Below the pieces are notes generated by a model that searched no databases, was not told the DNA's origin, and was given only the letters and a program-made list of their open reading frames with translations. From Candidatus Woesearchaeota archaeon (lineage in GTDB: Archaea > Nanobdellota > Nanobdellia > Woesearchaeales > SM23-78): a stretch of DNA of 64,000 nt. Of this stretch, positions 9,066-62,288 are shown one piece after another. Made by a program: the position numbers and the translations under genes. The stretch covers positions 1,924 to 65,923 of the forward strand of contig JAFGDD010000014.1 in NCBI GenBank assembly GCA_016932315.1, read 5' to 3'. The stretch's first letter is position 1. Each line of letters starts with the position of its first letter.

Positions 9066-9237
9066 CAAAAAAAAAGTCGCCGCCACCAAACAAAAGCTCT
9101 GCTTTTGATGGTGCCAGAAATTTATAATTTCTGAGCACCCGCAACAGCACCGTAAAAAAATTTTGTTAAAAATTTTTAGGTGCTCGGTGGCTATGACTGG
9201 GGATGCGCCCTCCGGGCTGTCATAGACGACTTTTTGC
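9066..9237. repeat. Structured intergenic element, family A copy 1
   Basis: Terminal inverted repeats CAAAAAAAAAGTCG / CGACTTTTTG; homologous to 11972..12133. Confidence 0.75.
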
Positions 9238-9790
9238 AAGGCGCGAAATACTTTTTCTCCAGCCACTTCCTGAACTCCTCAAACGCAAGCTTTCTATGGG
9301 ATATCTTGTTCTTCTCCTCCAGCGTCATCTCTGAGAATCTTTTGGAATATCCTTCAGGCATAAATATCTGGTCCCATTGGAAACGAGTGTCGCCTGCAGG
9401 AGAGACTATTATTCCACGAATCCTGCCTTGAAAGACAAGAGGTTCATTACCAGGCTCACAATAGCCTATGCTAACCATTGCAACAGCTCCTCTGTCCTTG
9501 TACTTGTTAGCGAGTTCATAAAGCCCAGTTAATCCCATCTTTCTTAAGAAACCCTTGATGTAAGGTCCTGGTAAGCCATTCAGTGCATTGAAGCATAGGC
9601 TTGTGTCCTCAACAAAAACAGCTTTACTGGTTTTTTCTGCTGCAAGCCTCACCTTTTCCTTGACAATCTCATCAGGCTCTCCCTGCAGTTCTGGCAAGTC
9701 AATTTCTAGCTGTTCAACATCAAAACCTTTCAGTATATCTCTTACTTCCCTGAATTTTTCCTTGTTGCCTGTGACAAAGTAGAGTTTCAT
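9191..9790 (-). CDS. rdgB: Non-canonical purine NTP pyrophosphatase (HAM1/RdgB family)
   Basis: FVTGNKEK, VEDTSL, GLPGPYIK, FQWDQIF, KNKISHR. Confidence 0.95.
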   Translation of the reverse strand: MKLYFVTGNKEKFREVRDILKGFDVEQLEIDLPELQGEPDEIVKEKVRLAAEKTSKAVFVEDTSLCFNALNGLPGPYIKGFLRKMGLTGLYELANKYKDRGAVAMVSIGYCEPGNEPLVFQGRIRGIIVSPAGDTRFQWDQIFMPEGYSKRFSEMTLEEKNKISHRKLAFEEFRKWLEKKYFAPCKKSSMTARRAHPQS

Positions 9791-9813
9791 TTTGAAAATA
9801 ATAAAAAATAATA

Positions 9814-10115
9814 CGAGCGCGTCCGGACTTTCGCCAGATTTTCACATAGTTGGTAACGCGGAGGACTTAACGAAGTTAATGTCCTCCTTGCTTGTTTTTT
9901 ACCAGATTCAACAAAAGCTTTAGCTTTTGATGTGCGAAGAAAAGCCTTGCTTTTCTAGCACAACGAAACAAGTTTCGTTTGCTCAAAAACTTTTGTTTTT
10001 GCTGTTTCGCAAAAATCTGTTTCGAACCGGAGTCTCCTGGTAACCACAGGTCCTTTACAAAGCGTAAAGGCGGCTTCCGAAGCCAAGTGTGCTATCCAAG
10101 CTATACCACGCGCCC
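9814..10115 (-). tRNA. tRNA-Arg(UCG) with two introns: 10042..10076 at 37/38 and 9828..10020 at 59/60
   Basis: The spliced sequence GGGCGCG-TG-GTAT AGCTTGGATA GCAC-A-CTTGG CTTCGGA CCAGG-AGAC-TCCGG TTCGAAT CCGGA-CGCGCTC-G folds as a cloverleaf. A20 and discriminator G fit Arg identity. CCA is not encoded. Confidence 0.85.
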
Positions 10116-10224
10116 AATGAAGAGCATTAATAAAGAGATGTTTATATAATTAATCATAATTAATCAATATTTCATCTGAAATTTTAGATAATATTTATAT
10201 AGCTTCTGTGGTTTCTGGCAAAGC

Positions 10225-11322
10225 ATGAAAGCTGCAAAACTCAGTCATAATGGTCTGGAAGCCGTTCTTGAGCATAATGGGAGAACAGAGCGTTTATTAG
10301 TCAAGGATTATCCTTATATCAAGGGCTTTGAACCAGTTTTTGCTCAATTCTGCGCATTCCACCTATTGGCGCCGCACCTGCCCAAGAATGTCATTTCTAA
10401 CTTTCCAATATCAAATCCTATGATTAAACTAATTAATAAGATGTATAGTTTTGAGGGCGAGCCATCTCCCAGAATAAGTAGTCCAAAAGTAAATATTGCA
10501 GGCATTCCATTCAAAACATCGAATGATAAGGCAGTAATATCATATTCAGCAGGCAAGGATTCTATGTGGAATCTTTGGTGGGCGCAGGAAGAATTTGGCA
10601 AGGATAATGTTCTTGCAGCCCACATAAGCGGCCTGAACAGATCCAATTCTTCTGATGAAACGAGATATGCACTAAGGCAGAGCAAAAAATTTGATTTTAG
10701 CCTTGAGATGCTCCAATTATGCAATGGCTCTGGCGGGAAAGGATACCAGGTAATGCGCTCCAGAGACATGTTCATGGTTGGAATTTTAATTCCTTATGCG
10801 TTAAATTTCGGGGCGTCAAATATTATTATTGAAGGATTCGGAGAAGATGTCAGGAGCAGCGAACCATTCACAGGGCATGAACAAAACATGCTATTATTCA
10901 ATAAAACTCTGAAAGAAATGAACATTCCAATAAGGGTTAAGTGGAGAAACAGGAAAGAAATGGATGTGGTCAAGGATTTATACATCAACAAGCCAGACTG
11001 GATGTCTGAAGTATGCAATTGTTTTTCTCCAAGCCATTACAAAATTGCTCTTCATAATAGCTGGGAGAGAAGAACGCCATCAATAAGATTATATGATTCA
11101 CAATGCGGCTCCTGCGTGAAATGCAGGATAATTAACATCGGCAGGATACTTTATGACCCTAATTTCGAAGCCACAGAGGAAGATATAACATATTATATAA
11201 AATCGACAGAGAAGTGGTATGCCGAGCATAAAATTACGCATAATGATATGATTGGCGGAAGCTTCTTAGAAGCCCTGACAAAGGCAGCAAAAATCCATGA
11301 TATTGATTTATCGAAAATATAA
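10225..11322 (+). CDS. QueC-like PP-loop ATPase with N-terminal extension
   Basis: SYSAGKDS PP-loop; CNC...CGSCVKC zinc motif. Confidence 0.7.
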   Translation: MKAAKLSHNGLEAVLEHNGRTERLLVKDYPYIKGFEPVFAQFCAFHLLAPHLPKNVISNFPISNPMIKLINKMYSFEGEPSPRISSPKVNIAGIPFKTSNDKAVISYSAGKDSMWNLWWAQEEFGKDNVLAAHISGLNRSNSSDETRYALRQSKKFDFSLEMLQLCNGSGGKGYQVMRSRDMFMVGILIPYALNFGASNIIIEGFGEDVRSSEPFTGHEQNMLLFNKTLKEMNIPIRVKWRNRKEMDVVKDLYINKPDWMSEVCNCFSPSHYKIALHNSWERRTPSIRLYDSQCGSCVKCRIINIGRILYDPNFEATEEDITYYIKSTEKWYAEHKITHNDMIGGSFLEALTKAAKIHDIDLSKI

Positions 11323-11358
11323 TTTCTAAGAACGCAATAAGAAAAAATCAAAAAATCT

Positions 11359-11640
11359 TTATTTCTTTACCAGCGTTATCTCAATTGTGGATACCCGGAC
11401 GTCCTGGCCTTCCTGGTTCTTGAATCCTTCAGAGTCAATCCTTATCTCTTTCAGGGCTATCTGGTCCTTGAGGAATCTCTTCATCACGACTTCTGCTACG
11501 TCAACTGCCCTGCTGATGAATTTCCCCCTAGCTTTTATGGTTACTTCCTGGGCTCCCTTTGTCGTGAACTGCACCACGACTCCTGTGACATAGTTCATGA
11601 AAGGCTTGTTGCCTATAAATACTGAGTTGTCGTCCATCAA
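11359..11640 (-). CDS. albA: DNA/RNA-binding protein Alba
   Basis: VFIGNKPFMNYV, IKARGKFISRAVDVAE, VSTIEI. Confidence 0.97.
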   Translation of the reverse strand: MMDDNSVFIGNKPFMNYVTGVVVQFTTKGAQEVTIKARGKFISRAVDVAEVVMKRFLKDQIALKEIRIDSEGFKNQEGQDVRVSTIEITLVKK

Positions 11641-11731
11641 AAATCACCCTGTTGATTTTTGGGGACCCCAAAAGTTGCACTTTTGTTGTCTGCCATTCCA
11701 ATCCCCCTTGTTGTTGTTCGTCAATACTGCC

Positions 11732-11923
11732 TTAGCTTGCCTGAGCTTTGATCATCCTGGTAACATAGCCAGCTATGATGTTCCTTAATTTCTTGGACTT
11801 TACAGTCACAAGCTCTGCCACTTTAATCTTGTTCTCCTCGTAATTAGCGCTAAAGCTATCCCTGTGCTCTTCTAGCAATGAGTGCGTTATTGACTTCACT
11901 AGTCTAGTCTTGATTCTACCCAT
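11732..11923 (-). CDS. rps17e: 30S ribosomal protein S17e
   Basis: MGRIKT...NYEENK...SKKLRNIIAGYVTR. Confidence 0.97.
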   Translation of the reverse strand: MGRIKTRLVKSITHSLLEEHRDSFSANYEENKIKVAELVTVKSKKLRNIIAGYVTRMIKAQAS

Positions 11924-11971
11924 GGAGGGATGAGAAAGGAGAGTGGTTTATAAAGGTTTTGGGGAAAAAGT

Positions 11972-12133
11972 CAAAAAAAAAGTCGCCGCAACCAGCAACA
12001 GCGCCAAGGACGATAACAAATTTTAATTTGTTGTATGCAAGAGTATACTCAAAACGAAGTTTTGTTGAGGACTTGGTGCAAGGTTGCTTTGATGGGGGGC
12101 GCCCCCTTCGGGGTGTCAAAGGCGACTTTTTGC
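11972..12133. repeat. Structured intergenic element, family A copy 2
   Basis: Same termini and GC-rich internal hairpin as 9066..9237. Confidence 0.75.
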
Positions 12134-12135
12134 AG

Positions 12136-12513
12136 TTAGAAATACTCACTTTTCTTTCCAGATATCCGAAAGCCATAAATTGACCAGAACTTGCCTTTTA
12201 ATGCTTTTTTTGGGTCATAAACGCCTTTCTGAGCGCCCATGCAGCTCATGTTTGGCTCTCCAGTGCCCCTGCTTTCCAATAAAAAATCAGAATTTACAAA
12301 ATAGGCATCATCAGGCAAAGGGCTTTTATCCACTCTTACAAAAGATGCGTTCGGAATCAATAGCCCTTTATCTTTCATAACAAAAAAATATTTGGAGCCA
12401 AAAAAAAGGTTGTCAGCCATGCTTCCATTATATTTTCTTAAATAGTCTTCCAGACTCCCATTCCTTTTAGGAGAGTAAGGTTCTGCTCCAAACACGTCAG
12501 TTTCAAGACCCAT
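12136..12513 (-). CDS. Hypothetical protein
   Basis: 125-aa ORF with a TATA-like element upstream; no recognised motif. Confidence 0.6.
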   Translation of the reverse strand: MGLETDVFGAEPYSPKRNGSLEDYLRKYNGSMADNLFFGSKYFFVMKDKGLLIPNASFVRVDKSPLPDDAYFVNSDFLLESRGTGEPNMSCMGAQKGVYDPKKALKGKFWSIYGFRISGKKSEYF

Positions 12514-12532
12514 AAGAAAGATGAAACCTTAA

Positions 12533-13267
12533 CTAGTTTATAAAAATATCTTTTTGATTAAGAAAATCAGTTATTTCTTTTGCAGCCAGTTCTGGCTCAT
12601 CAATTATCCAAGTGTGTTTTCTTTGAGGCATCATTCTAATTTCTAAATTGTTAAAAATTCTTTCTAATTGTTGTTTTCCAGAATCATTCATTTGACAGAA
12701 TTCGTCATTCTCTGCATAAAGTATCAATGTTGGCTTCTCAATTAAATCATGATCAGCATAATCAACATTCTTTGTTTCTATGCTTATTCTTAAAGTAGTG
12801 ATTGGCTTTTTTAGGCTGTTGACAAAATAGAACTTCGCATCAAGATTCTTTTTTATTATAATACTGCCCCTGCTCAGCATGTATTTAACAAGATTTTCTT
12901 CCACTTTAACCGGAGGGCTAATTCCTACAATTTTTTGAACATTAGGCTCATTGCCAAGAAAGAATCCAACTGCTGCACCTATGGAGTACCCGATCTGATT
13001 ATGCTCTTTTATCTTAAGTTTGCTTAAAAAATCAGATGTCAACTCAGCATACCCTGTTATTGTTGTTGGCTGGTTTTTTAGGTAATTAATTCCATACATT
13101 TCTGGAGCAATTATCTCGCAATTCATTTTTTCATGAATTTTCTCAAATAACCGGCTGAAATGAAACAATCTATTGCCATAGCCGTGCAGAAAAAGCAGCG
13201 GCTCACCTTTTCCTGTGGTCTGGTATTTAATCCTGTTCTGCCCAACAGTCATAACATGGTGTTGCAT
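12533..13267 (-). CDS. Alpha/beta hydrolase
   Basis: LFLHGY, GYSIG nucleophile elbow, PTLILYAENDEF, C-terminal His. Confidence 0.9.
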   Translation of the reverse strand: MQHHVMTVGQNRIKYQTTGKGEPLLFLHGYGNRLFHFSRLFEKIHEKMNCEIIAPEMYGINYLKNQPTTITGYAELTSDFLSKLKIKEHNQIGYSIGAAVGFFLGNEPNVQKIVGISPPVKVEENLVKYMLSRGSIIIKKNLDAKFYFVNSLKKPITTLRISIETKNVDYADHDLIEKPTLILYAENDEFCQMNDSGKQQLERIFNNLEIRMMPQRKHTWIIDEPELAAKEITDFLNQKDIFIN

Positions 13268-13341
13268 AAAGCATATTCGGTCGTTTCAACTTTATAAATT
13301 TTTCGTTTAGTAATCACTAAAAAGTGGTAATCATTTATGTT

Positions 13342-14133
13342 TTAAGATAATTCAACAATTATCTTCGCAGCAAGCTTAGAAGTCATCTCATTAACGTCTT
13401 TCTCAGGGTTGACTTCGACAACATCAAACATTCCAATATTCCTGAGCATCTTGAGGCGATGGATGAAATAAATAAGTTCTCGTGTAGTTAATCCTCCTGG
13501 CTCTTGATATCCTGTGCCTGGCGCAAAAGCAGGGTCTAAGGCGTCTATATCAATGCTTATGTAAGCCTTTGGCCAGAGCCTTGCAACGCTCATCACACTG
13601 TCAGCAACCTCTATGAGACTTTCAAAACTGGTTTCTCTCATGGAATAAACCTTGATCTTGTTTTCATCAATGAACTTCTTCTCTTCCTTGCTCATATTCC
13701 TAATGCCAACGAGGATGACGTTGCTCTTGTCAACGATTTTCTCCTCAATAAGAACTCGTAAGTAATCCTCGTGAGTTGGCGGCTTGTGATATTCCTGAAC
13801 ATCAGGGTGGGCGTCAAAGATGATTATTCCTGCGCCAGGGTTCTGCTTTGCAAAAGCCTTGAATGCAGGGTAAGTTAATGAATGGTCACCGCCAAGTAAT
13901 CCAATGTAATAATTTTTTTCAAGCTCTCTTTGAATTTCATTCTGAATAGTGTTGTGAGCTTCTTCTAAGTTGGAATTGTCAATCCGAATATCAATCATGT
14001 CAAACAATGGGAGCATTCCTGTCTCTGACAAATGAAAGTCCTTCAGTGTCTCAGCTATCTTATCAGGCCCTTTCTCTAAGCCATGCCTTTTGGACAATGC
14101 CCCTGCATTAAGAGGTATTTTGAAGAGTTTCAT
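13342..14133 (-). CDS. Agmatinase / arginase family ureohydrolase
   Basis: GGDHS, FDAHPD, SIDIDALDPAFAPGTG, VEVNP. Confidence 0.93.
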   Translation of the reverse strand: MKLFKIPLNAGALSKRHGLEKGPDKIAETLKDFHLSETGMLPLFDMIDIRIDNSNLEEAHNTIQNEIQRELEKNYYIGLLGGDHSLTYPAFKAFAKQNPGAGIIIFDAHPDVQEYHKPPTHEDYLRVLIEEKIVDKSNVILVGIRNMSKEEKKFIDENKIKVYSMRETSFESLIEVADSVMSVARLWPKAYISIDIDALDPAFAPGTGYQEPGGLTTRELIYFIHRLKMLRNIGMFDVVEVNPEKDVNEMTSKLAAKIIVELS

Positions 14134-16853: not shown

Positions 16854-16876
16854 TTTAGAAGATTTTATTTCCTAAT

Positions 16877-22271: not shown

Positions 22272-22420
22272 CACTGGACAGCAGAGCTAACGCTTCAGGC
22301 CTTGTAATTGCTTCACTGGACAACAAAAACTTCGTTTTTGAGTCCACTGCCTAAGGCACTGGACAACAAGAGTGCGCTCTTGAGTCCATTGGCTACGCCA
22401 CTGGACATCCTTGCGTAAGG
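22272..22420. repeat. Tandem hairpin array with 42-43 bp period
   Basis: CACTGGACA at 22272, 22314, 22357 and 22399, with inverted GTCCA copies and hairpins between them. Confidence 0.8.
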
Positions 22421-36069: not shown

Positions 36070-36202
36070 ATTACTTCTCTCATAATATTTCTTTGAATTA
36101 TAAAATTAAAACTTAAAATTATTTTTAGGCGCCTCAACAAAAACCAATGATTTTTGAGCTGTCAGCAGAGCCGACAACGCCGGCGGGGCTTTCAACGGGG
36201 AT

Positions 36203-39425: not shown

Positions 39426-39558
39426 TTAAGTCCGTTACCGCCCTAAGGTGCAAACTTCTTAGAAAAAATTAATCGAGCGCGTAGCCGGGGGTTGCCCCAT
39501 ACGGGGAGGCAGCGCCATCAAAATAACAAGCTAAAGTTTGCAAGGCGGTAGGACTTAA
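39426..39558. repeat. Structured intergenic element, family B copy 1
   Basis: Inverted arms TTAAGTCC..TACCGCC..TGCAAAC around a GGGGGTTGCCCCATACGGGG core; homologous to the reverse complement of 62165..62288. Confidence 0.8.
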
Positions 39559-47205: not shown

Positions 47206-47285
47206 CCACCAACCTTTAGCGCAAAGGTTGACGAAAAAATGCGGCATGCGTTCGCTTCGCTCACTTAGCCCCATAAAAAAGAGTA

Positions 47286-47501
47286 TGCGGGGAGAAGGAT
47301 TCGAACCCTCGCAGGCACTACTCCAAGGTTGGCACCTTGAATTGCCAAGGCCAAGCCTTGTCTACTCCAAGACTAGCGTCTTGTCCTGCCAAGACCTACA
47401 TCTTGTCTAAGCCAACAGGTCTCTTAGACTAGAGACGCTGTCTCCTAAGCCTGTCCCGTAAAGCCACCTTTTTTTGGTTTTGGCCGCTCCGGCATCCCCG
47501 C
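47286..47501 (-). tRNA. tRNA-Leu(UAG) with introns in the D-loop (47460..47479), at 37/38 (47421..47443) and in the variable arm (47318..47406, two tandem units)
   Basis: Spliced GCGGGGATGCCGGAGCGGCCAAACGGGACAGGCTTAGGACCTGTTGGCTTAGTGCCTGCGAGGGTTCGAATCCTTCTCCCCGCA; each site forms a BHB motif. Confidence 0.92.
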
Positions 47502-47573
47502 ATTTACCAGGTTACCTATTAGTGTGCTCTGCTGGTTTAAAAAATTTACTAAATGAAAACATTTAAATATTAA

Positions 47574-47621: not shown

Positions 47622-47810
47622 ATGAAAGTAGTTCTTAACCGAGGCCAGTATAAGATAACCATTCCTAAGGATTTAGCAGAAGAAAAAGGATGGGGAGCTG
47701 GCACCAAGATAAGATTTGTCGAGGATGCAGATGGAAAAATATTCCTCAAAGTGATAGAACTAAAACCGCTCAAGAAAGAGATTGCTGCAAAAGATAAGAC
47801 GAGAAAATGA
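47622..47810 (+). CDS. AbrB/MazE/SpoVT family DNA-binding protein
   Basis: GQYKITIPKDLAEEKGWGAG..IRF; ATGA overlap with the next gene. Confidence 0.88.
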   Translation: MKVVLNRGQYKITIPKDLAEEKGWGAGTKIRFVEDADGKIFLKVIELKPLKKEIAAKDKTRK

Positions 47811-49744
47811 ATCATAACGAGAACATAAGAAAACTTGAAGAAACCCTAAACGAAGTAATCAGATTTACAAACGAGCTAGATGAAAAGCTGGCAAGAAACG
47901 AAATCGACGGCATCCATTATCATGTCTTGCTGAATGAAAAACTCAGCGGAAGAACAAAAGAAGAAATCATCAGCCACATCGAGCAAAAAATCAAAGAAGA
48001 AAAAAACAAAGCACGAGAGGGCAAAAAGAAGACTATAACAATCAGCGCAGCAGCTATCATACTAATAATAATAGCAATAATAGGAATAATATACCCTAAT
48101 CCAGGCGCATTAACAGGCTACACCACAGCAACCAAGCAAATAGAACAAAAAATTGATTATAACAGAGTATTTGAACACTACACAGAAACACAACTAGACC
48201 TAACAAATCTAACGAGCCTCAAGATATCCGGAACACTAGAAGGAACAGGAGCAAAAATCAAACTAAGAATAAACGGAACAGAATACCTGATAGCGCAAAT
48301 AACCAATCCGACAGAACAACCAAGCCAAATAACAGGAATGGTAATAGAAGAAGAAACAACACAATACACAATAACAACAGACAAAACAACATACACCCTC
48401 GGAGAAACAGCAACAATAACAATAACACCAACAACAAACAACCAATCACTATATGTTTCCTATGGCGAAGAAACACACAAACTAGAAACAAACACATACA
48501 AACCAGAAACCACAGGAAACTATCAGATCATAGCACTAATAGTACTACCAGAAGACATCATAAGGATAAACACAAACTTCACAGTAACAAGCAAAAATAA
48601 TTCTATTTTTGCAGTTCCAGAAAAGTCAAACTTTTCTGAAACAGAAACAACCACAACAGAAGAAACGCCAAAAGAAACAAATGAAACAAACCAAACAACA
48701 CCAACAAACGAAACAACACCAACAGAAAACACAACAGTCAACGAAACAAACCAAACCAATGAAACCACACCAACAGAACCAACAACAAACGCATTCGTAT
48801 TCGAAAACCTATGCACAGAAACATGCACGCTAACAGAAAACAGTAACCCAGTATTGATAGTTGAACTGGATGACAACACAACACTAACCATAAACACACT
48901 AACAACAACGCAAACCAAAGAAAACCTTGCGCCAGAACAAAACAAAAACATACCCGACATAACACTCGCAAAAGGAGAATCAAGAACAATCAACCTAAAC
49001 AACTACTTCAAAGACCCAGAAGAAGAAACAATACAATACGACATAAACAAAATACCAGAAATAACAACCACAATAAACCAAAACGAACTAACAATAACAT
49101 CACAAAACCTCGGAAAATACACAGCTTACATATACGCAACAGACGGAAACAAAATGATAGTAAGCAACACATTCACAATCACCATAACAGAAACAACAGA
49201 AGAAACAACCACAGAAACAAACCAAACAACAAACGAAACAACAGGACTGCCAATAAGCAATGAAACCGAAATTGTTCTCACTCCAATAATTGATTGCGGC
49301 AATCCTAACCCCAACAACAGGCCTGTTGAGTGCATGATAGGACAGGAAGACAAGTACTTCAAGGACAAATCCATCTTCATAGAAAACCTTGACAAGACGC
49401 AAGTCGCAAGAATAACTGCATTCGGCAACATGGTGATAAGAGGAAAGCTATACGAGAACTCAATCTATGCTCCGAGCAGCAGGGACTTCAGGGTTAATTA
49501 CTTCATCGATGATGGAGAGACAGAAGTGGTGAGCGCATGGATAGACACAGCAACAGGAGACTTGCATCTAAGAGGCACAGCGCATGAAGAGCAGTTCAGC
49601 ATCATCCCACCAAGCACTGGAGCATTCATCATCCAGAACAGGAAAGGAACCAACCTTGGATTCATAGACAAGATTACAGGAGATTTGTATTTGAGAGGCA
49701 ATCTGATACAAGAGCAGCCTGAAGAAAACGTGATAACACAATGA
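47807..49744 (+). CDS. Membrane-anchored surface glycoprotein with Thr/Glu/Asn linkers and a 3-repeat C-terminal domain
   Basis: TM helix, NET sequon repeats, Ig-like LNNYFKDPE module. Confidence 0.85.
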   Translation: MNHNENIRKLEETLNEVIRFTNELDEKLARNEIDGIHYHVLLNEKLSGRTKEEIISHIEQKIKEEKNKAREGKKKTITISAAAIILIIIAIIGIIYPNPGALTGYTTATKQIEQKIDYNRVFEHYTETQLDLTNLTSLKISGTLEGTGAKIKLRINGTEYLIAQITNPTEQPSQITGMVIEEETTQYTITTDKTTYTLGETATITITPTTNNQSLYVSYGEETHKLETNTYKPETTGNYQIIALIVLPEDIIRINTNFTVTSKNNSIFAVPEKSNFSETETTTTEETPKETNETNQTTPTNETTPTENTTVNETNQTNETTPTEPTTNAFVFENLCTETCTLTENSNPVLIVELDDNTTLTINTLTTTQTKENLAPEQNKNIPDITLAKGESRTINLNNYFKDPEEETIQYDINKIPEITTTINQNELTITSQNLGKYTAYIYATDGNKMIVSNTFTITITETTEETTTETNQTTNETTGLPISNETEIVLTPIIDCGNPNPNNRPVECMIGQEDKYFKDKSIFIENLDKTQVARITAFGNMVIRGKLYENSIYAPSSRDFRVNYFIDDGETEVVSAWIDTATGDLHLRGTAHEEQFSIIPPSTGAFIIQNRKGTNLGFIDKITGDLYLRGNLIQEQPEENVITQ

Positions 49745-51582
49745 TGCAAAAAAATAATTTGCAAAAAATGATAAAGCAAACGCTCTGGCTAGTGCTCACT
49801 ATAATAATATTATCTAATCTTGCAATGTTGGCATCTGCTGAGAATGATCCAGGCCACGACACATTATATATAGAGCAGACAGGAGACAGCGAGCTCACAG
49901 GAATGTTCAACGTCAGCGAGAACTTCACAGTAAAAGGAGGAAATGCATTCCTGAAAGACAACCTTGACATCTTCTTCAACGGCATCACGCCAGACTTGAC
50001 TAATAGAAATGTAATATCAGGCTCAGCCACAGACTTATACCTTGACGCGAAATCAAGCGGCAATATTTATCTGAATGCTTTCAACAACGGAGGCAACATC
50101 TACGTCGGAGGAGCAGGCGACACAGTCAACCTTAACGTTACAGGAGCTCTTTATGTTGGAGGATTAGACTACTCTGCTACTAAAGTTTGCTTAGCCAACG
50201 GAAGCCATTGCCCGGCAGCAATAAGCGGAGCAAACCTCACAGCAAACAGCGCAACCTCAGGATATATTGTACAATTCCAGAATGCAAGCGTACTAAACAA
50301 CTCAGTAATTTATCAGAGCGGAAGCAACATAGGAATAGGAACAACAAGCCCAAACGTAACACTACACGTAAACGGAAGCATAAACGTAACAACAGGATAC
50401 GACGTATGCATAGAAGACGGAACATGCCTGAGTACAGTAAGCGGGGGAGACGCAAGCGAAAGAACACTAAACGCAACAACAAACCTCTTGAATACTACAA
50501 TACAAACAGCAGCAACAAACATAAGCGCAATAAACACAACAGTAACAACACTAGCAACAAACACATCAGCAATAAACGACACAAGAAAAGCAGGAGACGA
50601 CGCACTAAACGTTACAATAGTCCAAATAAACGGAAACCTAACACAAGCAGCAAGCAACATAAGCGCACTAAACACAAGCAAAGGAGGAACAGGAAACTGC
50701 GCAGAAGGAACACTAGTACAAAACACCACAACAACAGGAGTAGAATGCGCAGCAGCAGGTGGCGCCGACGAAGTTGGAACATTAACTAATACTTATGTGT
50801 GCTACACAGACGGAGACGCAGTCTTGTGCGACGACGCAGGAATGACATTCACAGCAGCAACCAACACAATAACAGCAGGAAACATCACAGTAACAACTAA
50901 CATAACAACAGGAAACTTATCAGTAACCACACTAATAACAGCAGGAGCACTTAACTGCACTGACTGCATAGACGGAGCAGACTTAGCAGACACTGTTGAA
51001 TTGGATGCTATTCTTGCAATCAATGGCTACAATGTTACTTTCAACACATCAGTCCTGCATGTTGACGTGACAAATGGAAGAGTAGGAGTAGGAACAGCAG
51101 CACCGGGCTATGCTCTAGAAGTTGTCGGCAGCGGAACTACGGTTATCAATCTAAAAGATAGTGCTGATAGCGTCGAGACAATAATTTCAGCCCAAGCAGA
51201 TAAAGGAAGAATAGGCACCAGAAGCAACCACGACTTGAATATAGTAACGAATAACGTTGCAAAGATGATTATAGCAAAATCAGGCTATGTTAGCATAAAC
51301 ACCACATCACCAGATGCTACGCTGGCAGTAGCAGGAAATCTAAGCGTTACCGGAACAACCAACAGCAGCATAGACTCAGGAACACTATTCATAGACGCAA
51401 CCAACAACAAAGTAGGAGTAGGCACTGCCGCCCCTGATTCTTTGCTTGATGTGCAGAGCAGCAATATTGCCACTCAATTAAGAGTCAGCTATGATGACAC
51501 ATATTATTCCAACATAAGCGCTGACGCAACAGGCAACCTTACTATAAAGGCTGTTAATCATGTAATTATTGATTTAAGTTAA
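49741..51582 (+). CDS. Secreted fibre/adhesin-like protein
   Basis: Signal peptide; repeated (N/R/K)(I/V)G(I/V)GT..P beta-repeats and a short coiled coil, as in trimeric fibre proteins. Confidence 0.8.
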   Translation: MMQKNNLQKMIKQTLWLVLTIIILSNLAMLASAENDPGHDTLYIEQTGDSELTGMFNVSENFTVKGGNAFLKDNLDIFFNGITPDLTNRNVISGSATDLYLDAKSSGNIYLNAFNNGGNIYVGGAGDTVNLNVTGALYVGGLDYSATKVCLANGSHCPAAISGANLTANSATSGYIVQFQNASVLNNSVIYQSGSNIGIGTTSPNVTLHVNGSINVTTGYDVCIEDGTCLSTVSGGDASERTLNATTNLLNTTIQTAATNISAINTTVTTLATNTSAINDTRKAGDDALNVTIVQINGNLTQAASNISALNTSKGGTGNCAEGTLVQNTTTTGVECAAAGGADEVGTLTNTYVCYTDGDAVLCDDAGMTFTAATNTITAGNITVTTNITTGNLSVTTLITAGALNCTDCIDGADLADTVELDAILAINGYNVTFNTSVLHVDVTNGRVGVGTAAPGYALEVVGSGTTVINLKDSADSVETIISAQADKGRIGTRSNHDLNIVTNNVAKMIIAKSGYVSINTTSPDATLAVAGNLSVTGTTNSSIDSGTLFIDATNNKVGVGTAAPDSLLDVQSSNIATQLRVSYDDTYYSNISADATGNLTIKAVNHVIIDLS

Positions 51583-54378: not shown

Positions 54379-54471
54379 AAAATCACCTACAAATCAAATT
54401 AAACTATTTCCTAGCAGTTCTGGTTGATTTATAAATGTTGTTATATTAAATTAATGAAAATTATCTTTTAG

Positions 54472-54659
54472 GAAATGCGCCGCCTGGGCCTTAAGGTGAG
54501 CGAGACCAATGTAAACTATGCATATAGTTTACTCAAAAATTAGCGCAATTGTGTTAATTTTTGTTGTAAAGCGGCAAAGCTCTGCACGCAAGGAACAGAT
54601 TTTCTTCAGAGCAGGATGCAATTGGAAAATCTGGCGAGCGAACGGCCAAGGCGCATTTC
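54472..54659. repeat. Structured intergenic element with nested hairpin modules
   Basis: Terminal inverted repeat GAAATGCGCC / GGCGCATTTC; several internal hairpins. Confidence 0.7.
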
Positions 54660-54744
54660 TTGTACAAGCCCATTCTAAAGCGAAACTTTTATATGCTAAA
54701 CATTACTTACGAGTATTAGTAATATTAAATTATTAAGGGGGATT

Positions 54745-54954
54745 GTGATGGAAGAGAAGGAGATTGGAAGGATTAAGAAGACCGACTCCACCAGCGTTGT
54801 TGTCAGGATTAACGAGTTTCAGGGTGAGGCTGGCGTCGATATCCGTGAGTACGTTGAGACGACCAAGTACACTGGCTTGACCAAGAAGGGCACTCGTATT
54901 CCTAAGAGCAAGTGGAAGGACTTCAAGGAGCTTATCAACAAGGTTGATTTCTAA
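54745..54954 (+). CDS. PC4/YdbC-like ssDNA-binding protein
   Basis: VRINEFQG..VDIREY..TKKG..W pattern. Confidence 0.85.
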   Translation: MMEEKEIGRIKKTDSTSVVVRINEFQGEAGVDIREYVETTKYTGLTKKGTRIPKSKWKDFKELINKVDF

Positions 54955-57440: not shown

Positions 57441-58199
57441 TTAATGCTCCAACAAAAATTTAAGCATAAGCATAAATATTATTCCAAGAAGAAAAAAGCC
57501 AAATGATATCAACGACTTCTTTAATTTTGGCTCCTTATGCAATTCAGGTATTAGGTCAGAGGCAGCTATATATATGAATCCTCCTGCTGCAAAAGGCAGG
57601 ATGAAAGGAACTGCTCCTTCAATGCTCTTTGAGAAAAAATATGCTGCGATTCCACCAATCACACACGTAAGTTGGGATATAAAGCTGTAAATCAATGCCT
57701 TAGTCTTGCCAAAACCGCCATACACCAACACACCAAAATTCCCGAGCTCCTGCGGAATCTCGTGCCCAATGATTAGCAGCGTCGTGATGATGCCGAAAGG
57801 AACGCTCACAATAAAGCTGATGCCAATGATTATGCCGTCAATAAGGTTATGCACTCCGTCGCCAAAAAGGATCAGGTAAGATACTGGGTGGACTGCGCAC
57901 TTGCCCCCGTGCTGGTGGCAGTGATGCCAGTGCAGGAACCTTTCTATTATAAAAAACATGATAAAACCAGCTAACAAGCATGCAAAAACATTCATTGCAG
58001 GAAGCTCTTCAAGGGCTTCTGGCAGGAGATGAAAGAAAGCGCCGCTCAGGAGCGCGCCTGCAGAGAAAGCCACTAGAATCATTAAGAGCTTGTTGAAAAG
58101 CTTCTCATTCATCCATAAGGAAAAAACTCCAACAAGGCCTACGAGGCCATTAACAATGGTTGCGAAAAGTATCCAAAATAAAACGTTCATGAAAGTCAC
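57441..58199 (-). CDS. ZIP family metal transporter
   Basis: HLLPEA, HWHHCH loop, HNLIDG, HEIPQE. Confidence 0.95.
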   Translation of the reverse strand: MTFMNVLFWILFATIVNGLVGLVGVFSLWMNEKLFNKLLMILVAFSAGALLSGAFFHLLPEALEELPAMNVFACLLAGFIMFFIIERFLHWHHCHQHGGKCAVHPVSYLILFGDGVHNLIDGIIIGISFIVSVPFGIITTLLIIGHEIPQELGNFGVLVYGGFGKTKALIYSFISQLTCVIGGIAAYFFSKSIEGAVPFILPFAAGGFIYIAASDLIPELHKEPKLKKSLISFGFFLLGIIFMLMLKFLLEH

Positions 58200-58204
58200 C
58201 TGTG

Positions 58205-58531
58205 CTAATGCATTCGGCGTCCTGGTCCTCTCCCAGGTCCAGTCATCGTGTAGTTGCCGCCATGTATTTTTATAGCTTTCCCATTCACTATTGCATCGGT
58301 TATTTTTTTCCTTGCAGACAAGAGAAGCCTGTGAAAGGTCGGCTGGGATATGTTCATCTTCTGCGCGGCATCTTCCTGCTCCAAGCCTTCAACATCCTTA
58401 AGTCTTATTGCCTCGTACTCTTCCACAGAAATTATTGATTCATCTAATTCTCTTAACCTTACTCCTGCCGGCTTAAAGTAAGTAAAGCCTGGAACTCCCA
58501 TTACTCTCCTGCAGATTCTTGGCCTGGGCAT
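58205..58531 (-). CDS. DUF134 family HTH regulator
   Basis: MPRPR, FKPAG, EEYEAIRLKD, MNISQPTF. Confidence 0.93.
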   Translation of the reverse strand: MPRPRICRRVMGVPGFTYFKPAGVRLRELDESIISVEEYEAIRLKDVEGLEQEDAAQKMNISQPTFHRLLLSARKKITDAIVNGKAIKIHGGNYTMTGPGRGPGRRMH

Positions 58532-58534
58532 CTT

Positions 58535-58768
58535 CTAATCATGCTCCTCAAAAGCCTTGTCCTGCTCCTTGTCGTTTTTTCTTAGCCATTCCATGAGCAT
58601 GGCAGCATGCTCTTTCTCCTCGTCACGGTTGTGCCCGAGGATATTCTTTAGAACAGGGTCTTTGGCATCTTCCATTCTGGTCTCGTACCAGTTGATGGCC
58701 TCAAGCTCCTCTATCATGCTCTGCCTTGCTTTCTTTAAGTCAGTGTTTTCAACTTCTTTTGCGTACAT
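58535..58768 (-). CDS. Encapsulated-ferritin-like (EncFtn) protein
   Basis: SMIEELEAINWY..HNRDEEKEHAAMLMEWLRKND. Confidence 0.88.
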   Translation of the reverse strand: MYAKEVENTDLKKARQSMIEELEAINWYETRMEDAKDPVLKNILGHNRDEEKEHAAMLMEWLRKNDKEQDKAFEEHD

Positions 58769-58836
58769 TTTTATGCCACCCCTATTTTATTAAACCTATT
58801 TTTAATGAAAATTAATCCTATTTTTAAATATTAGCA

Positions 58837-59721
58837 TCACTCTTCTACATTTCTTTGCCTAATATTTTTTAAAGTATTCGAAAAAATCCCTGTGAACTGC
58901 TTATCATAAGCATTAACAGGCTTCATCTTGATGGTTGACTCCATTATTCTCTTGCTATAAGGTATCCTTCCTATTACAGGTATCTTGTTCTTACTTGCAA
59001 ATGCCTCTATCTTCCTGCAAAAGCTCTTTGAAAGGTTGTGCTTGTTTATCATTAGACCGCAGGGAATCCTGAAATGCCTTATAACCAGCAATACCCTTTG
59101 CAAGTCGCTTAATGCAGAGGGTGATGGCTCTGTTACTGCCACTGCATAGTCTGAGCCTGCTATAGAAGCAATTACTGGGCATCCGATTCCTGCTGCAGAG
59201 TCCACAATCATTGCTTCCATCTTTCTATTTGCTGCTATTTTCTCAGCCACCCTTATAGTCTCTACAACCAGCTCCCCTGATACTGGCTCTCCTACTTTAA
59301 GCTCTCCTGACACCAGGTTTATTCCAAAGTTTTTCCCATCATAGACAGAGCCTATTTTTTTGCTGCCTTCTTTTATGGCTCCTGAAGGGCAGACTGCCAT
59401 GCAGGCCTTGCACCCAGTGCAGGTTTCAGGCACAAAAGCAGGGTATTTCCCAGGCACAAACACTATGGAATGCTGCTTGCAGATTTCAGCGCATTTGCCG
59501 CACTTAGTGCACTCGTCCAGTTTGAACTCTGGTATGAACTGAAGCACATCCTTAATCTTCTTTCTTTTCACAGAAAGTATAAGGTGGTCATTAGGGCAGT
59601 CAACATCAGCATCTACAAGCAAAGTTTTCTTTGTCTTTGAAAGCTCATACGCCAAGGCTGCTGCTACAGTCGACTTACCTGTTCCGCCTTTTCCTCCAGT
59701 CACCACTATTCTCATTGCCAT
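58837..59721 (-). CDS. MinD-superfamily P-loop ATPase with inserted 2x[4Fe-4S] ferredoxin (COG1149)
   Basis: GGKGGTGKS, DADVDCPN, two CxxCxxCxxxC motifs, GIGCPVIAS. Confidence 0.93.
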   Translation of the reverse strand: MAMRIVVTGGKGGTGKSTVAAALAYELSKTKKTLLVDADVDCPNDHLILSVKRKKIKDVLQFIPEFKLDECTKCGKCAEICKQHSIVFVPGKYPAFVPETCTGCKACMAVCPSGAIKEGSKKIGSVYDGKNFGINLVSGELKVGEPVSGELVVETIRVAEKIAANRKMEAMIVDSAAGIGCPVIASIAGSDYAVAVTEPSPSALSDLQRVLLVIRHFRIPCGLMINKHNLSKSFCRKIEAFASKNKIPVIGRIPYSKRIMESTIKMKPVNAYDKQFTGIFSNTLKNIRQRNVEE

Positions 59722-59781
59722 AATATCACCTTTGTAATGGTAATAATCTCAGATGCACACCCCTTATTATTTATATTATCT

Positions 59782-60171
59782 TTATCTATATTGATGGTGC
59801 ATCATCGGCCCTGTTGGTTCATCAATCTTCTTGAGCTTGCCATCAGCAAATGCTTTGATAGCATCAATTATTTTCCCAGTCACAGGGTAAATGCCTATGT
59901 TGAACTGGCTGAAGACGCTAAAAGCTCTTGGTCCCACATTTCCTGTGAGGACTGCCTGAGCTCCTTTTTTTGCCACTAGCTCTGCTGATGTTATGCCAAC
60001 TCCTCCTGTTTGGTTGGCGCTTGTGTTCTCAACTACCTCGTGCCCTTTGATTTCTTTGCCCTCTAATTCCACAAATATAAAATAAGGGCACCTACCGAAT
60101 CTCATATCGACTTCGCTCTCCAAGCTATTGCCTGCTGCACTTATGGCTATTTTCATGTTTTCACCTTGCAA
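59782..60171 (-). CDS. NifB/NifX family (COG1433) protein
   Basis: MKIAIS, RFGRCPYF, GNVGPRA. Confidence 0.92.
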   Translation of the reverse strand: MQGENMKIAISAAGNSLESEVDMRFGRCPYFIFVELEGKEIKGHEVVENTSANQTGGVGITSAELVAKKGAQAVLTGNVGPRAFSVFSQFNIGIYPVTGKIIDAIKAFADGKLKKIDEPTGPMMHHQYR

Positions 60172-60218
60172 GTTTATTTCTCAAAGTTATTTCTGATTCT
60201 AGTCTGGTTTCAGCAATT

Positions 60219-60470
60219 TTACTCAAGCTCTTTCAGCCGTTTGTCTATAGCTGCTTTCTCTGCTTCAAGTATTTTCTTTTGCTCTTCCTTACTTAATTCA
60301 ACTGGCTCATTCAAGCCAAAGTCTCTGGCAAATCCAAATCCTCTGCCAAAGCCCCTGCCTTGACCTCTTCCGAATCCTCGGCCTCGAGCAAGCCCTCTTC
60401 CGCAAGGCCCTAAGCCCCTGCCTGTTGCAGGTCCTTGTCCTAAGGGTCCTGTTCCGTCTCCTCCTGGCAT
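60219..60470 (-). CDS. DUF5320 family protein
   Basis: MPGGDGTGPLGQGPATGRGLGPC, GRG repeats, C-terminal coiled coil; GGAGGTG RBS. Confidence 0.9.
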   Translation of the reverse strand: MPGGDGTGPLGQGPATGRGLGPCGRGLARGRGFGRGQGRGFGRGFGFARDFGLNEPVELSKEEQKKILEAEKAAIDKRLKELE

Positions 60471-60509
60471 AATTTTCACCTCCTGCATTTTTATTGTTTT
60501 CTCTCGGAA

Positions 60510-60549
60510 TTGAATACAAATTCAAAACCAATAATGAATAAGTATTCAT
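60510..60549. promoter_or_regulatory. Paired palindromic operators of the DUF5320-NifX operon
   Basis: TTGAAT-ACAA-ATTCAA (60510) and ATGAATA-AG-TATTCAT (60534) directly downstream of a minus-strand BRE/TATA. Confidence 0.6.
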
Positions 60550-60639
60550 AACTAGTATATAAAGTTTTCGGAATTAGAGCGAAAAAAAGTTTAGAAAACC
60601 ATATATTCAAGCCATGTTAAAATAGAAAAAAGAAAAAAT

Positions 60640-61032
60640 TTATTGTTTAGGCTCCTCTTTGGCTTTCCGGTAATCGTTAATAATATCTTTTGTATGCGCC
60701 AGCACTTCATTAGCCGACTCCATTATTTTGGCAACTGCTTCAGTTATTTTTTCTAAATTAGAGCCCTGCCCCAAATCCTGCTCCTGCCTTCCATCATAGG
60801 GCCAAGGCGCATTAGGCCCAAATCCAAGCCCTCTACCAAAGCCCATGCCTCTACCAAAGCCAGCGCCCCTGCCGCCGCCAAAAGCTCTTCCTCTGCCGCC
60901 TCCATAAGGAGCAGATCCTCTTCCTGCCCCGCGAGGCGCATAACCCGCCCCTCCTGTGGGTCTGCAATAACCCATACCACGGCCGGTCCGCGACCCTTCT
61001 CCTCTCGGCCCTGTTCCATCATATCCTGGCAT
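60640..61032 (-). CDS. DUF5320-like Gly/Arg-rich protein
   Basis: MPGYDGTGPRGEGSRTGRGMGYC. Confidence 0.88.
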   Translation of the reverse strand: MPGYDGTGPRGEGSRTGRGMGYCRPTGGAGYAPRGAGRGSAPYGGGRGRAFGGGRGAGFGRGMGFGRGLGFGPNAPWPYDGRQEQDLGQGSNLEKITEAVAKIMESANEVLAHTKDIINDYRKAKEEPKQ

Positions 61033-61036
61033 AATA

Positions 61037-61411
61037 TCACCTCCTTTTATTCATAAATTGCCTTAATTTATTTAGAGTAATGTTGCTCAGGCCATGCTCC
61101 ATTTCGCAGGCATCCTTAAGAGCAATAGATTTGTTTACACCCAATATTTTGTGCAGAAAATTAAACAAGGTTTTATGTTTTTTATAGACTTCTTTTGCAA
61201 ATATTTTTCCGTGCCCAGTCAATTTTATCAAGCCATACCTCTCAAACTCAATCAGGCGAGCCTTTGACATTTTCCTGACGGCCTCAGTTACGCTAGGCAG
61301 CTTTACACCAAGGCTTTTTGCAACGTCCTTTACCCTCACCGCGCCTTTTTCCTGCTCTAAAAGATAAATAGCCTCAAGATAATCCTCAAAGCTTTTTGTT
61401 AGGCTACCCAT
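61037..61411 (-). CDS. DtxR/MntR family metal-dependent regulator
   Basis: EDYLEAIY, LGVKLPSVTE, DACEMEH. Confidence 0.95.
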   Translation of the reverse strand: MGSLTKSFEDYLEAIYLLEQEKGAVRVKDVAKSLGVKLPSVTEAVRKMSKARLIEFERYGLIKLTGHGKIFAKEVYKKHKTLFNFLHKILGVNKSIALKDACEMEHGLSNITLNKLRQFMNKRR

Positions 61412-61416
61412 ACAAT

Positions 61417-61435
61417 GTTAGGTTACACTAACTAA
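61417..61435. promoter_or_regulatory. DtxR-box-like operator
   Basis: GTTAGGTTACACTAACTAA between the TATA box and the dtxR start; resembles the DtxR/IdeR box. Confidence 0.65.
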
Positions 61436-61486
61436 TATTTAAAATTTTCGATAAATTTTATATACTCAAAAAAAAACACTTTTCAT

Positions 61487-62155
61487 ATGAATAAAATAAA
61501 GCTAACATATACCCTGCTCTACAACTCCTACGGCCCCCAGGGATGGTGGCCTCTTACTTCTAAGTATAAGTTCATCCCGGAGCACAAGGGCGAAAAGCCT
61601 GACACTGAGCAGAGGAAGTTTGAAATAATTATCGGTGCAATAATGACGCAGAACACTGCTTGGGCTAATGTTGAAAAGGCAATAATCAACCTCAACAAGA
61701 AAAAGCTGCTTAGCATTGAAAAGATTAGGAAGCTGCCGGAAAAGAAGCTTGCAGAGCTAATCAAGCCGAGTGGATATTACAATCAGAAGGCTAAGAAGAT
61801 AAAGGCAATGATTAAGTTTCTTGATTCAAAAAAGCCAATTACCAGGGAAAACATTCTTTCTGTCTGGGGCGTTGGCCCTGAAACTGCTGATTCCATGCTT
61901 CTTTACGCTTATGAACAGCCTTATTTTGTTGTTGACGCTTACACCAAAAGATTATTTTCTCGGTTAGGTTTTTGCAATGAAAAAGATAGCTATGAATTTT
62001 TACAAGCATTATTCCATCAGAATCTTGACAAGAACGTTGATGTGTTCAAGGAGTATCATGCATTGATTGTCGAGCACTGCAAAAGGTTTTGCAGGAAAAA
62101 GCCTGATTGCAAAGGTTGCGTGCTGATGGAGGAATGCAGACATAATAAAAAATAA
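61487..62155 (+). CDS. Endonuclease III-related HhH-GPD protein
   Basis: GPQGWWP, TQNTAW, GVGPETAD, VVDAY, C-terminal Fe-S cysteines. Confidence 0.93.
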   Translation: MNKIKLTYTLLYNSYGPQGWWPLTSKYKFIPEHKGEKPDTEQRKFEIIIGAIMTQNTAWANVEKAIINLNKKKLLSIEKIRKLPEKKLAELIKPSGYYNQKAKKIKAMIKFLDSKKPITRENILSVWGVGPETADSMLLYAYEQPYFVVDAYTKRLFSRLGFCNEKDSYEFLQALFHQNLDKNVDVFKEYHALIVEHCKRFCRKKPDCKGCVLMEECRHNKK

Positions 62156-62164
62156 TTTTGACTG

Positions 62165-62288
62165 GTGAGCGAGCGCCTCAAAATGCTCGCTCATGATTCC
62201 GAAGGCGCTGCTCCCCGTATGGGGCAACCCCCGCGACGCGCTAGATTATTTTATCGAAGGCATTTTGCCTTAAGGCGCTCTTGCTCAC
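62165..62288. repeat. Structured intergenic element, family B copy 2 (inverted)
   Basis: Core GGCGCTGCTCCCCGTATGGGGCAACCCCC is the reverse complement of the 39471..39516 core. Confidence 0.8.

Follow-up and report, generated by a model that had tools for sequence, protein, structure and literature searches.

The 64,000-nucleotide stretch of DNA analysed here (the window) covers positions 1924-65923 of contig C24 in G000, a 1.34-Mb metagenome-assembled genome (MAG) of a Candidatus Woesearchaeota archaeon that comprises 28 contigs and is 91% complete. The nearest relatives of its arginyl-tRNA synthetase come from MAGs with the labels Nanoarchaeia, Woesearchaeota or "Euryarchaeota archaeon SM23-78" (83-74% identity), which places the organism with the DPANN, Woesearchaeota-like archaea. 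The window carries a tRNA-Arg(TCG) gene with two introns, copies of several structured repeats, one of them beside the rpS17e promoter, and, dispersed among these, short hairpins that open with C and a run of A and close with a run of T and G. An earlier note on this DNA had described the hairpins as modular insertions common to intergenic elements and tRNA introns, and had proposed that they found new introns. We found that the hairpins are secondary insertions, that the same cassettes occur in unrelated hosts, and that a strand of the local helix is re-used on insertion. For comparison we used 15 genomes of the genus (including G000 and the unpublished G002), three of the sister genus and 23 of other families. 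In coding DNA, relatives are only 68-80% identical. We identified bulge-helix-bulge (BHB) motifs and a number of boundaries by visual inspection, and gene context was taken from a crude caller of open reading frames (ORFs).

All nine modules listed in the earlier note exist, eight of them recovered by a perfect-stem scan (9909, 22321, 22364 and 36135 on the plus strand; 54533, 12049, 11668 and 9983 on the minus strand) and the ninth located at 9091-9107. Across both strands of G000, perfect CAAA..TTTG hairpins (stem of at least 6, loop of 3-12) numbered 466, compared with 120-158 in 10 whole-genome dinucleotide shuffles; for those with a CA[AG]..[AG] flank, the figures were 42 and 1-7. When counted in the non-coding class, which makes up 281,305 of the 1,338,846 bases (21%), there were 201 perfect hairpins of the type C-A4-5..T4-5-G, whereas 30 dinucleotide shuffles made within each segment averaged 18.2 (range 11-31). 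By this shuffle comparison, which the earlier note itself had named, the modules form a real dispersed family. As short palindromes present in high copy number and lying outside long ORFs at 205 of 233 loci, they share a defining feature of repetitive extragenic palindromic (REP) sequences. The 205 non-ORF hairpins represent 150 different sequences, with stems mostly of 6-9 bp and loops of 3 nt (n=101) or 4 nt (n=63). Their format is C-A4-5-N1-4, a loop of 3-4 nt, and N'-T4-5-G; head and tail are stereotyped, and the outer stems covary. Pairing includes almost no G-U: among non-coding CAAA-type hairpins with 7-9-bp stems, 126 were perfect versus 24 with one mismatch, and only 3 of those 24 mismatches were G.T (8 were A.C).

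The hairpins also tend to alternate with a short word and its inverse, in the order X, hairpin, inverted X, hairpin, X. This signature was fitted by 16 of the 176 adjacent perfect-hairpin pairs, whereas 200 permutations of the linkers averaged 2.64 fits and never exceeded 7, and moving the flanks by 10-30 nt in five controls left 2, 0, 0, 1 and 1, so the alternation that the earlier note had remarked on is above chance. The modules are in addition restricted to particular lineages. Matches to CAAAAGC-N3-4-GCTTTTG numbered 34 in G000, 24 in G007, 22 in G005, 16 in G012, 10 in G006 and 9 each in G002 and G003; the other eight genomes of the genus had 0-5 (1 each in G001 and G013), the three genomes of the sister genus 1-2, and the 23 genomes of other families 0-1, and a reversed-pattern control gave 0 throughout.

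Two intergenic elements in the window, at 9063-9245 and 11969-12141, are copies of a single ~115-nt three-way-junction repeat, which we call family A. In G000, nhmmer listed it in 84 rows (E <= 0.01), and a covariance model, for which no more than 80 candidates were scored in each genome, matched it 73 times. The core consists of a closing helix P1 (AAAAAGTCGCC/GGCGACTTTTT), a helix P2 (GC[CA]ACC/GGT[GT]GC), an arm P3, which is variable, and a hairpin P4 with GGGGG-NNN-CCCC-NNN-GGGG inside it. Across 20 minimal copies, 97.7% of the cells of 33 pairs were paired and 20 of the 33 pairs had changed on both sides; none of 500 shuffles reached this covariation score, and slid partners were only 39-50% paired. 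Two-sided changes accounted for 110 cells, compared with 4 one-sided (G-U) changes. The first window copy (9063..9245, plus strand; model R1, 68.3 bits, E 1.5e-14) has P1 = AAAAAGTCGCC/GACGACTTTTT and P2 = GCCACC/GGTGGC, followed by P3 and a P4 hairpin with GGGG..CCC..GGG, and the final ~45 nt of ORF 9191..9790, on the minus strand, fall within it. The second (11969..12141, plus strand; model R1, 109.8 bits) lies beside the rpS17e promoter.

All 71 strong nhmmer copies (E < 1e-6) are intergenic or at gene ends, and the repeat terminates in a T-run on both strands. Between co-directional genes, 35 copies were antisense and 16 sense. Within the genus it is patchy, with 73 matches in G000, 48 in G012, 6 in G014, 5 in G007, 4 in G013, 2 in G005, 1 in G002 and none in the other eight genomes of the genus; beyond it there were weak partial matches alone, in two other families. 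Module counts do not track family A counts across genomes. At the rpS17e promoter, a family A copy is present in both G000 and G012, where G005 has a 13-nt gap and G001 and G013 have other sequence; in the stretches of G005, G001 and G013 that are syntenic, model R1 detected no family A copy, and no target duplication was visible in the comparison of filled and empty site. In G013 the corresponding position upstream of rpS17e (locus L126) holds a lone module, CTCAAAAC-AATG-GTTTTGTTG.

Family A thus acts as a lineage-specific structured repeat resembling a MITE (a transposable element of the miniature inverted-repeat kind), although without conserved termini or visible target duplication. Like a MITE, it is non-coding, present in many copies, bounded by the terminal inverted sequence P1, and either present or absent at an orthologous site. 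Unlike one, it lacks conserved terminal inverted repeats (P1 pairs, yet 5 of its 11 pairs have changed on both sides between copies), neither a fixed target-site duplication nor an autonomous insertion-sequence partner was seen, and its interior is a conserved three-way junction in which 20 of 33 pairs covary.

The hairpin cassettes are insertions within this repeat. We mapped them by pairwise alignment of long family A copies with their closest short copies, as the nhmmer alignment was too fragmented. Most insertions are 33-56 nt long (one is 99 nt) and usually contain two hairpins. They are found in the 5' strand of P2 (9088-9139 and C21:8332), at the tip of P3 (~12024-12067 and C10:24984), on both sides of P4, and in the inner CCCC/GGGG hairpin. 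Direct repeats of 7, 5, 6, 4, 4 and 7 nt bound six of the insertion types. Often the cassette is flanked by a 4-7-nt direct repeat and the linker between its two hairpins is the reverse complement of that repeat, in agreement with the earlier proposal that the insertion carries an inverted copy of a local word; the full signature is seen at three family A helices, as CACC..GGTG..CACC, GTGAC..GGCAC..GTGAC and GCCCT..AGGGC..GCCCC.

One such case is the 52-nt two-hairpin cassette at 9088..9139, which lies in the 5' strand of P2, appears in the signature scan and is, in line with the earlier note, a clean insertion relative to cassette-free copies. Its order is CACC-AAA-[CAAAAGC TCT GCTTTTG]-AT-GGTG-CC-[AGAAATT..AATTTCT]-GAG-CACC, and a near-identical copy at C21:8332-8510 likewise has the 4-nt boundary direct repeat CACC. 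Pairwise comparison identified a further insertion of ~36 nt at the P3 tip (12024..12067), which includes the module at 12049-12067; in a sister copy at C10:24984 the insertion is 33 nt long and is bounded by a direct repeat of 7 nt, TTTGTTA. X belongs to a host helix, of which it is one strand, and with the added inverted and direct copies of X that helix persists and the hairpins form additional arms of the junction, an arrangement that is visible in the minimum-free-energy fold of family A copy 1.

The same cassettes were found in hosts unrelated to family A. The T-loop intron of the window's tRNA-Arg(TCG) gene contains a four-hairpin cassette, A-B-C-D (9909..10004), which holds the modules at 9909 and 9983 (reverse complement) as well as the TGTGC-hairpin-GCACA unit, and whose core matches insertions in five copies of a second repeat, family D, with 87-90% identity across 58-68 nt. 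Modules are therefore common to intergenic repeats and tRNA introns, as had been claimed. A family D copy without this cassette lies in the window at 62156..62320, with at least 16 further BLAST matches in G000, and by inspection it serves as the empty-site reference for the copies at C14:48560, C23:9800 and C28:23100. A second window copy of family D was seen at ~39439-39519 (core GGCGCT..CCCCG.ATGG-GGCAACCCCC..ACGCGC); the window copies lack the four-hairpin cassette and some copies elsewhere have it. Six copies of an additional repeat family of ~120 nt were also seen.

The tRNA genes themselves are hard to find: ARAGORN at its defaults and Rfam at its gathering thresholds found no tRNA in the window. 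With introns allowed, ARAGORN called 22 tRNAs in G000, most of them interrupted, and the Rfam tRNA model gave 14 above its cut-off. The window's tRNA-Arg(TCG) gene (9814..10115, minus strand) was called by ARAGORN as tRNA-Arg (tcg) i(40,35) once the T-loop intron had been removed in silico, which upholds the assignment made earlier; the same operation rendered the tRNA-Ile(tat) gene on contig C12 callable. Its canonical 37/38 intron is 35 nt long (10042..10076, minus strand, from i(40,35) and counted from the 5' end at 10115). The T-loop intron, at position 59/60, is 193 nt long (9828..10020, minus strand) and was identified in a regular-expression census, its removal restoring a callable tRNA. 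By inspection, its junctions read: T stem, H = TTCG, bulge AA|A, h' = CAGATTTT/AAAATCTG, an extra G, H' = CGAA, bulge AG|T, T stem, and thus appear to form a BHB motif relaxed by one nucleotide.

This intron belongs to a family of which G000 has members in five or more tRNAs, at position 59/60 or 37/38, with 5' ends NCAGATTTT... and 3' ends ...AAAATCT-N-NNAA-AG|. Two other members occupy T loops: a 99-nt one in tRNA-Ile(TAT) on C12 and a 95-nt one in a tRNA on C18 that is interrupted three times. Two more lie at 37/38, in tRNA-Gly(CCC) on C14 (149 nt) and in a tRNA on C6. In the apparent 4-bp BHB helix, an exon word pairs with its inverted copy at the 3' end of the intron; the helix covaries in three of the five (TTCG/CGAA once, TTCA/TGAA twice), the remaining two being TTGC/GTAA, with one G.U, and TTCC/AGAA, with one mismatch. 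Cassettes are nested in the first hairpin of the intron. The C12 and C18 members have none; the C6 member has two hairpins, A and D, at GAAA|..|AATCT; and the window intron has these same two plus two more between them. Among its paralogues the intron grows stepwise, from 0 to 2 to 4 hairpins.

The tRNA-Arg(TCG) T-loop intron is absent from G013 and G003, of the same genus, and from G038, of another family. In G001 it is 32 nt long, has the same ends and contains no CAAAA module. It measures ~44 nt in G012, where it begins directly with one CAAAAG module, ~40 nt in G010 (T loop TTCAAAT, intron end ..TGAATG), ~95 nt in G002, and ~44 nt (end ..CGAAAG) in G033, a member of a different family in the order. 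Between species, the interiors bear no relation to one another. Since the intron is patchy across the genus and extends to another family, the 59/60 site is either old or recurrent, and since the 32-nt G001 orthologue and the C12 paralogue both lack the cassette, the modules enlarged an existing intron. The tRNA introns are, then, a separate BHB intron family that the cassettes merely expand, here to 193 nt. Hairpins also occur in introns of tRNA-Ala(CGC) and tRNA-Gly(CCC), and ARAGORN with introns allowed placed a tRNA-Gly(GCC) gene at 47285..47502 (minus strand) whose 131-nt intron is an array of hairpins of a sister type, CAAG..CTTG.

Taken together, these data show a lineage-restricted population of short perfect DNA palindromes in G000, gathered mostly as two-hairpin cassettes of about 33-56 bp in family A, in family D, in other repeats and in long BHB introns. 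We favour, with middling confidence, the reading that the cassettes accrete by replication-linked template switching and copy-paste within non-coding DNA that is already structured. Under this reading, short perfect palindromes would arise, and stay perfect, at the level of DNA, through template switching in palindrome-rich sequence, and the correction of quasi-palindromes would combine with micro inverted triplication and with ectopic copying by microhomology, requiring neither a dedicated transposase nor selection on an RNA motif. A process acting on DNA is suggested because the pairing is Watson-Crick only, with almost no G-U. The ratio of perfect to mismatched stems (126:24) and that of two-sided to one-sided changes (110:4) are not the usual trace of selection on RNA structure, and fit the copying of one arm from the other. 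Both the hairpins and family A have the features expected of template switching, namely perfect inverted repeats in which both arms have changed with no G-U intermediates. Of the mechanisms suggested in the earlier note, template switching accordingly agrees with the strictly Watson-Crick pairing, whereas insertion driven by a reverse transcriptase (RT) is disfavoured, as described below.

This likeness extends to published cases. Monttinen and Loytynoja (2022, PMC8794818) describe template switching that creates and repairs perfect hairpins, with multi-base compensatory changes. Replication errors in the form of small inverted triplications (DUP/INV/DUP, spacers included) have also been documented (PMC13334657). 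As presented in these two papers, such events share with G000 the perfect Watson-Crick stems, the compensatory change without G-U intermediates, the X-inverted X-X order and the independence from a dedicated enzyme. The events in those papers are, however, rare and dispersed over genomes, whereas G000 has ~200 hairpins of one format in a small genome, and compared with the inverted triplications described, its words are just 4-6 nt long, with hairpins as the spacers.

Several considerations weigh against template switching. The mechanism is deduced from end products, with no event reconstructed on a tree. The two hairpins of an X-hairpin-inverted X-hairpin-X unit differ, and a single fold-back does not yield two different palindromes. 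The invariant C-A-run head is left without an explanation and could be a recognition site, and near-identical cassettes in different hosts would also fit a mobile unit driven by an enzyme, the gene for which may be missing or act in trans, the MAG being 91% complete. Boundary repeats span just 0-2 nt in about half of the insertion types, and the strict signature is confined to the 16 of 176 hairpin pairs. Finally, public contigs of the source sequencing run end at 9110 and at 9882-9952, so that assembly through the cassettes is fragile and the exact path depends on the original assembly. That run yielded contigs without usable polymorphism, and two metatranscriptomes from the study it belongs to gave almost no RNA cover, which carries no information on expression.

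The main rival, which we consider possible though on the unlikely side, is that the cassettes are non-autonomous REP/REPIN- or MITE-like elements moved by an unrecognised or elsewhere-encoded enzyme that acts on the C-A-run/T-run-G hairpin in single-stranded DNA; its source might lie in the missing 9% of the MAG, in a virus, or in the host of what is likely a symbiont. The stereotyped head and tail, the presence of one cassette in unrelated hosts, the copy numbers that differ by lineage and the direct repeats that flank some insertions would all be expected of such elements, as would two-hairpin units whose modules lie, by inspection, in inverted orientation like those of REPINs. A search for the enzyme, however, gave little. 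Y1_Tnp (HUH; RAYT, PF01797) had no match in G000, as far as its 91% completeness allows, while the control was positive in 6 of 14 reference genomes, in keeping with the earlier remark that no candidate enzyme is visible in the window; OrfB_IS605 and DDE_Tnp_1 likewise had no match in G000, and the TnpB zinc-ribbon model gave two sub-threshold ones. The genome does encode two Xer-like tyrosine recombinases. Viral contigs yielded one chance match to a family A word, unconfirmed by the covariance model, and no match to the flanked module.

Two paralogous group-II-like RT genes are also present (C13:33666-34859, minus strand, and C28:37818-39065, plus strand), with 175 and 167 bits against a family cut-off of 300 and 63% identity to each other; each has an upstream ORF of 277-287 aa without an NCBIfam match. 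With the G000 RT as query, homologues were found in five of the 14 other genomes of the genus (G013, G011, G006, G009 and G001), including the module-poor G013 and G001, and were not found in the module-rich G012, G005 and G007. RT presence thus does not track module counts, and we rejected the RT as the driver of the modules. Further points tell against such a mobile element: boundary repeats vary from 0 to 7 nt, cut-and-paste transposition would not be expected to leave a linker that carries the local target in inverted form, and no master copy is evident, because the 205 hairpins comprise 150 different sequences, all perfectly paired.

The resemblance to REP/REPIN, BIME, ERIC and RU elements deserves mention in this regard, since these too are short palindromes or structured repeats that are intergenic, lineage-specific, present in tens to hundreds of copies and often located at gene ends; REPINs are doublets of inverted palindromes, and the G000 cassettes mostly have two hairpins. 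They differ in that no RAYT/Y1 HUH gene was found in G000, in that its sequences are highly diverse yet perfectly paired, and in that its units enter the helices of other repeats and tRNA introns together with an inverted local word. The REP head is given as GTAG/CGTC (PMC3733652); that of the G000 module is a C-A-run.

Template switching might also do more than expand existing elements. If, in this genus, it continuously produced perfect hairpins without an enzyme and inserted them, along with an inverted local word, into whatever helix tolerates them, it could build multi-arm repeats, inflate introns step by step and, on striking a tRNA loop, occasionally yield the order exon word, hairpin, inverted word, acceptable to the splicing endonuclease, a wider claim that we regard as rather doubtful; were it true, template switching in palindrome-rich DNA would be a natural source of new BHB introns.

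It seems improbable that the hairpins are instead elements selected at the level of RNA or transcription, such as protein-binding stem-loops, stabilisers or bidirectional terminators, whose spread reflects function. Strong confinement to non-coding DNA, the T-runs of family A on both strands at gene ends, and the covariation of the outer stems would suit such a role. The near-absence of G-U pairs does not, and neither does the occurrence of both module orientations within one transcript, that of tRNA-Arg, or inside tRNA introns, where runs of T5 would not help. The orientation of family A is not fixed, because antisense copies outnumber sense copies by 35 to 16, and modules are nearly absent from the same-genus G001 and G013 (1 each). 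The possibility that the hairpins are mere gene-end terminators, which the earlier note had offered as a refutation of its own idea, fails on the same grounds, as modules lie in both orientations in tRNA introns and family A in both orientations relative to genes.

Equally hard to sustain is the proposal of the earlier note, that inserting a hairpin together with the target in inverted copy produces a BHB motif and thereby gives rise to a new tRNA intron. The geometry it invoked appears to hold for the intron family, where the central helix is an exon word and its inverted copy at the intron 3' end, covarying with the exon; moreover, the first hairpin of the intron, AGATTTTT-GCN-AAAAATCT, is also a module in family A copies at contig ends, and the G012 intron opens with a module. 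It does not hold for the cassettes in family A, which have no BHB geometry: the outer exon helix and the bulge spacing are lacking, and by inspection, an exon helix past the inverted word is missing from the 9088-9139 cassette, in which the hairpin and inverted X are 2 nt apart. The 59/60 intron of tRNA-Arg(TCG) is free of CAAAA modules in G001 and, by inspection, in G010 and G033, and, being found in a further family of the order as well, it either arose before the module expansion or is unconnected with it. Given these cases and the cassette-free paralogous introns, the claim that insertions create spliceable tRNA introns is not borne out; no intron founded by cassettes turned up, and cassettes expand BHB introns and repeats that already exist.

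For archaeal tRNA introns more generally, the literature offers a close precedent. Intron transposition has been described in Thermoproteales (Fujishima et al. 2010, via the review PMC4090602), where its mechanism is given as unknown, and 59/60 is listed as a known non-canonical position (PMC4090602). A family of related introns in several tRNAs of G000 matches that description; the differences are that the lineage is DPANN (Woesearchaeota-like) and that the introns reach 193 nt, growing by nested hairpin cassettes common to intergenic repeats. A 2026 census of Asgard tRNA introns states that intron arrival "remains open" (bioRxiv 10.64898/2026.10.13.758758). That a single genome has one intron family in five or more tRNAs, at two different positions, bears on how such introns arrive and grow, and the genus offers a compact natural series, with tRNA-Arg(TCG) T-loop introns of 0, 32, ~44 and 193 nt in sister species. 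Perfect hairpins that diversify at genome scale without G-U intermediates are, in turn, the pattern predicted for template-switch mutation, so the idea is testable in a 1.3-Mb genome. The repeats have practical consequences as well, since they hide most tRNA genes from standard finders and break MAG assemblies of such archaea. Several G000 contigs terminate in identical cassette-bearing repeats (the ends of C2, C6 and C20 and the start of C19; the start of C6, the ends of C7 and C21 and the start of C12), and therefore such elements limit assembly and true copy numbers are probably above those counted.

Elsewhere in the window, a pair of adjacent modules at 11638..11688 (11638-11661 and 11669-11685) occupies the spacer at the 3' end of ORF 11359..11640, parting that ORF from the gene read as rpS17e. 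The unit TGGAC-hairpin-GTCCA-hairpin-TGGAC reported at 22317-22406 is present, but its arrangement proved to be a tandem repeat of a hairpin unit closed by TGGAC/GTCCA (22314..22407; Tandem Repeats Finder: period 42, 2.2 copies, 80% matches), in which the two hairpins have the same base and inner 10 nt that are wholly different yet paired. A lone module, CAA-CAAAAAC..TTTTTG-AG, was located by the stem scan in an intergenic gap at 36135..36157 (plus strand). For the CAA/AG internal loop, we considered by eye and dropped a K-turn, a C/D-box and a BHB motif, because it lacks tandem G.A pairs and its bulges fall on the wrong strands.

A further structured element of ~190 nt, closed by AAATGCGCC/GGCGCATTT, lies at 54469..54661 (plus strand) and has partial relatives at 9 other places in G000. 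The RNA fold of 54455-54725 has an energy of -78.2 kcal/mol (z = -3.6). The unit GTAAAC-hairpin-GTTTAC-hairpin-GTAAAG (54511-54570) sits inside this element, as does an intron-like unit, CAGATTTTC..GAAAATCTGGCGAG, whose termini are those of the tRNA intron family and which may represent a BHB-type insertion into an RNA other than tRNA. Rfam gave no match to the element up to E = 10 (54380-54800 searched), and no meaningful family was returned for the window in gathering mode or for 8900-12300 in E-value mode.

As for splicing, G000 has a single catalytic domain of the tRNA-splicing endonuclease (one PF01974 match, 105 bits, in a 358-aa ORF at C14:178366-178626, minus strand). Introns also occur at the T loop and D loop; introns at non-canonical sites need an endonuclease of broad specificity. 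The introns of tRNA-Trp(CCA) (C14:8055-8206) and tRNA-Met(CAT) (C19:19287-19415) contain paired ATGA...CTG/ATGA words resembling C/D-box guide RNAs, and intron-encoded C/D-box guides are known from other archaeal tRNA-Trp genes. Lastly, two ORFs of 645 and 613 aa (window 47807-51582) have no Pfam match, a strong A-over-T skew and many imperfect AAC/AAA-rich tandem repeats; their products are likely low-complexity surface proteins, adjoining S-layer-like and DUF11 proteins.

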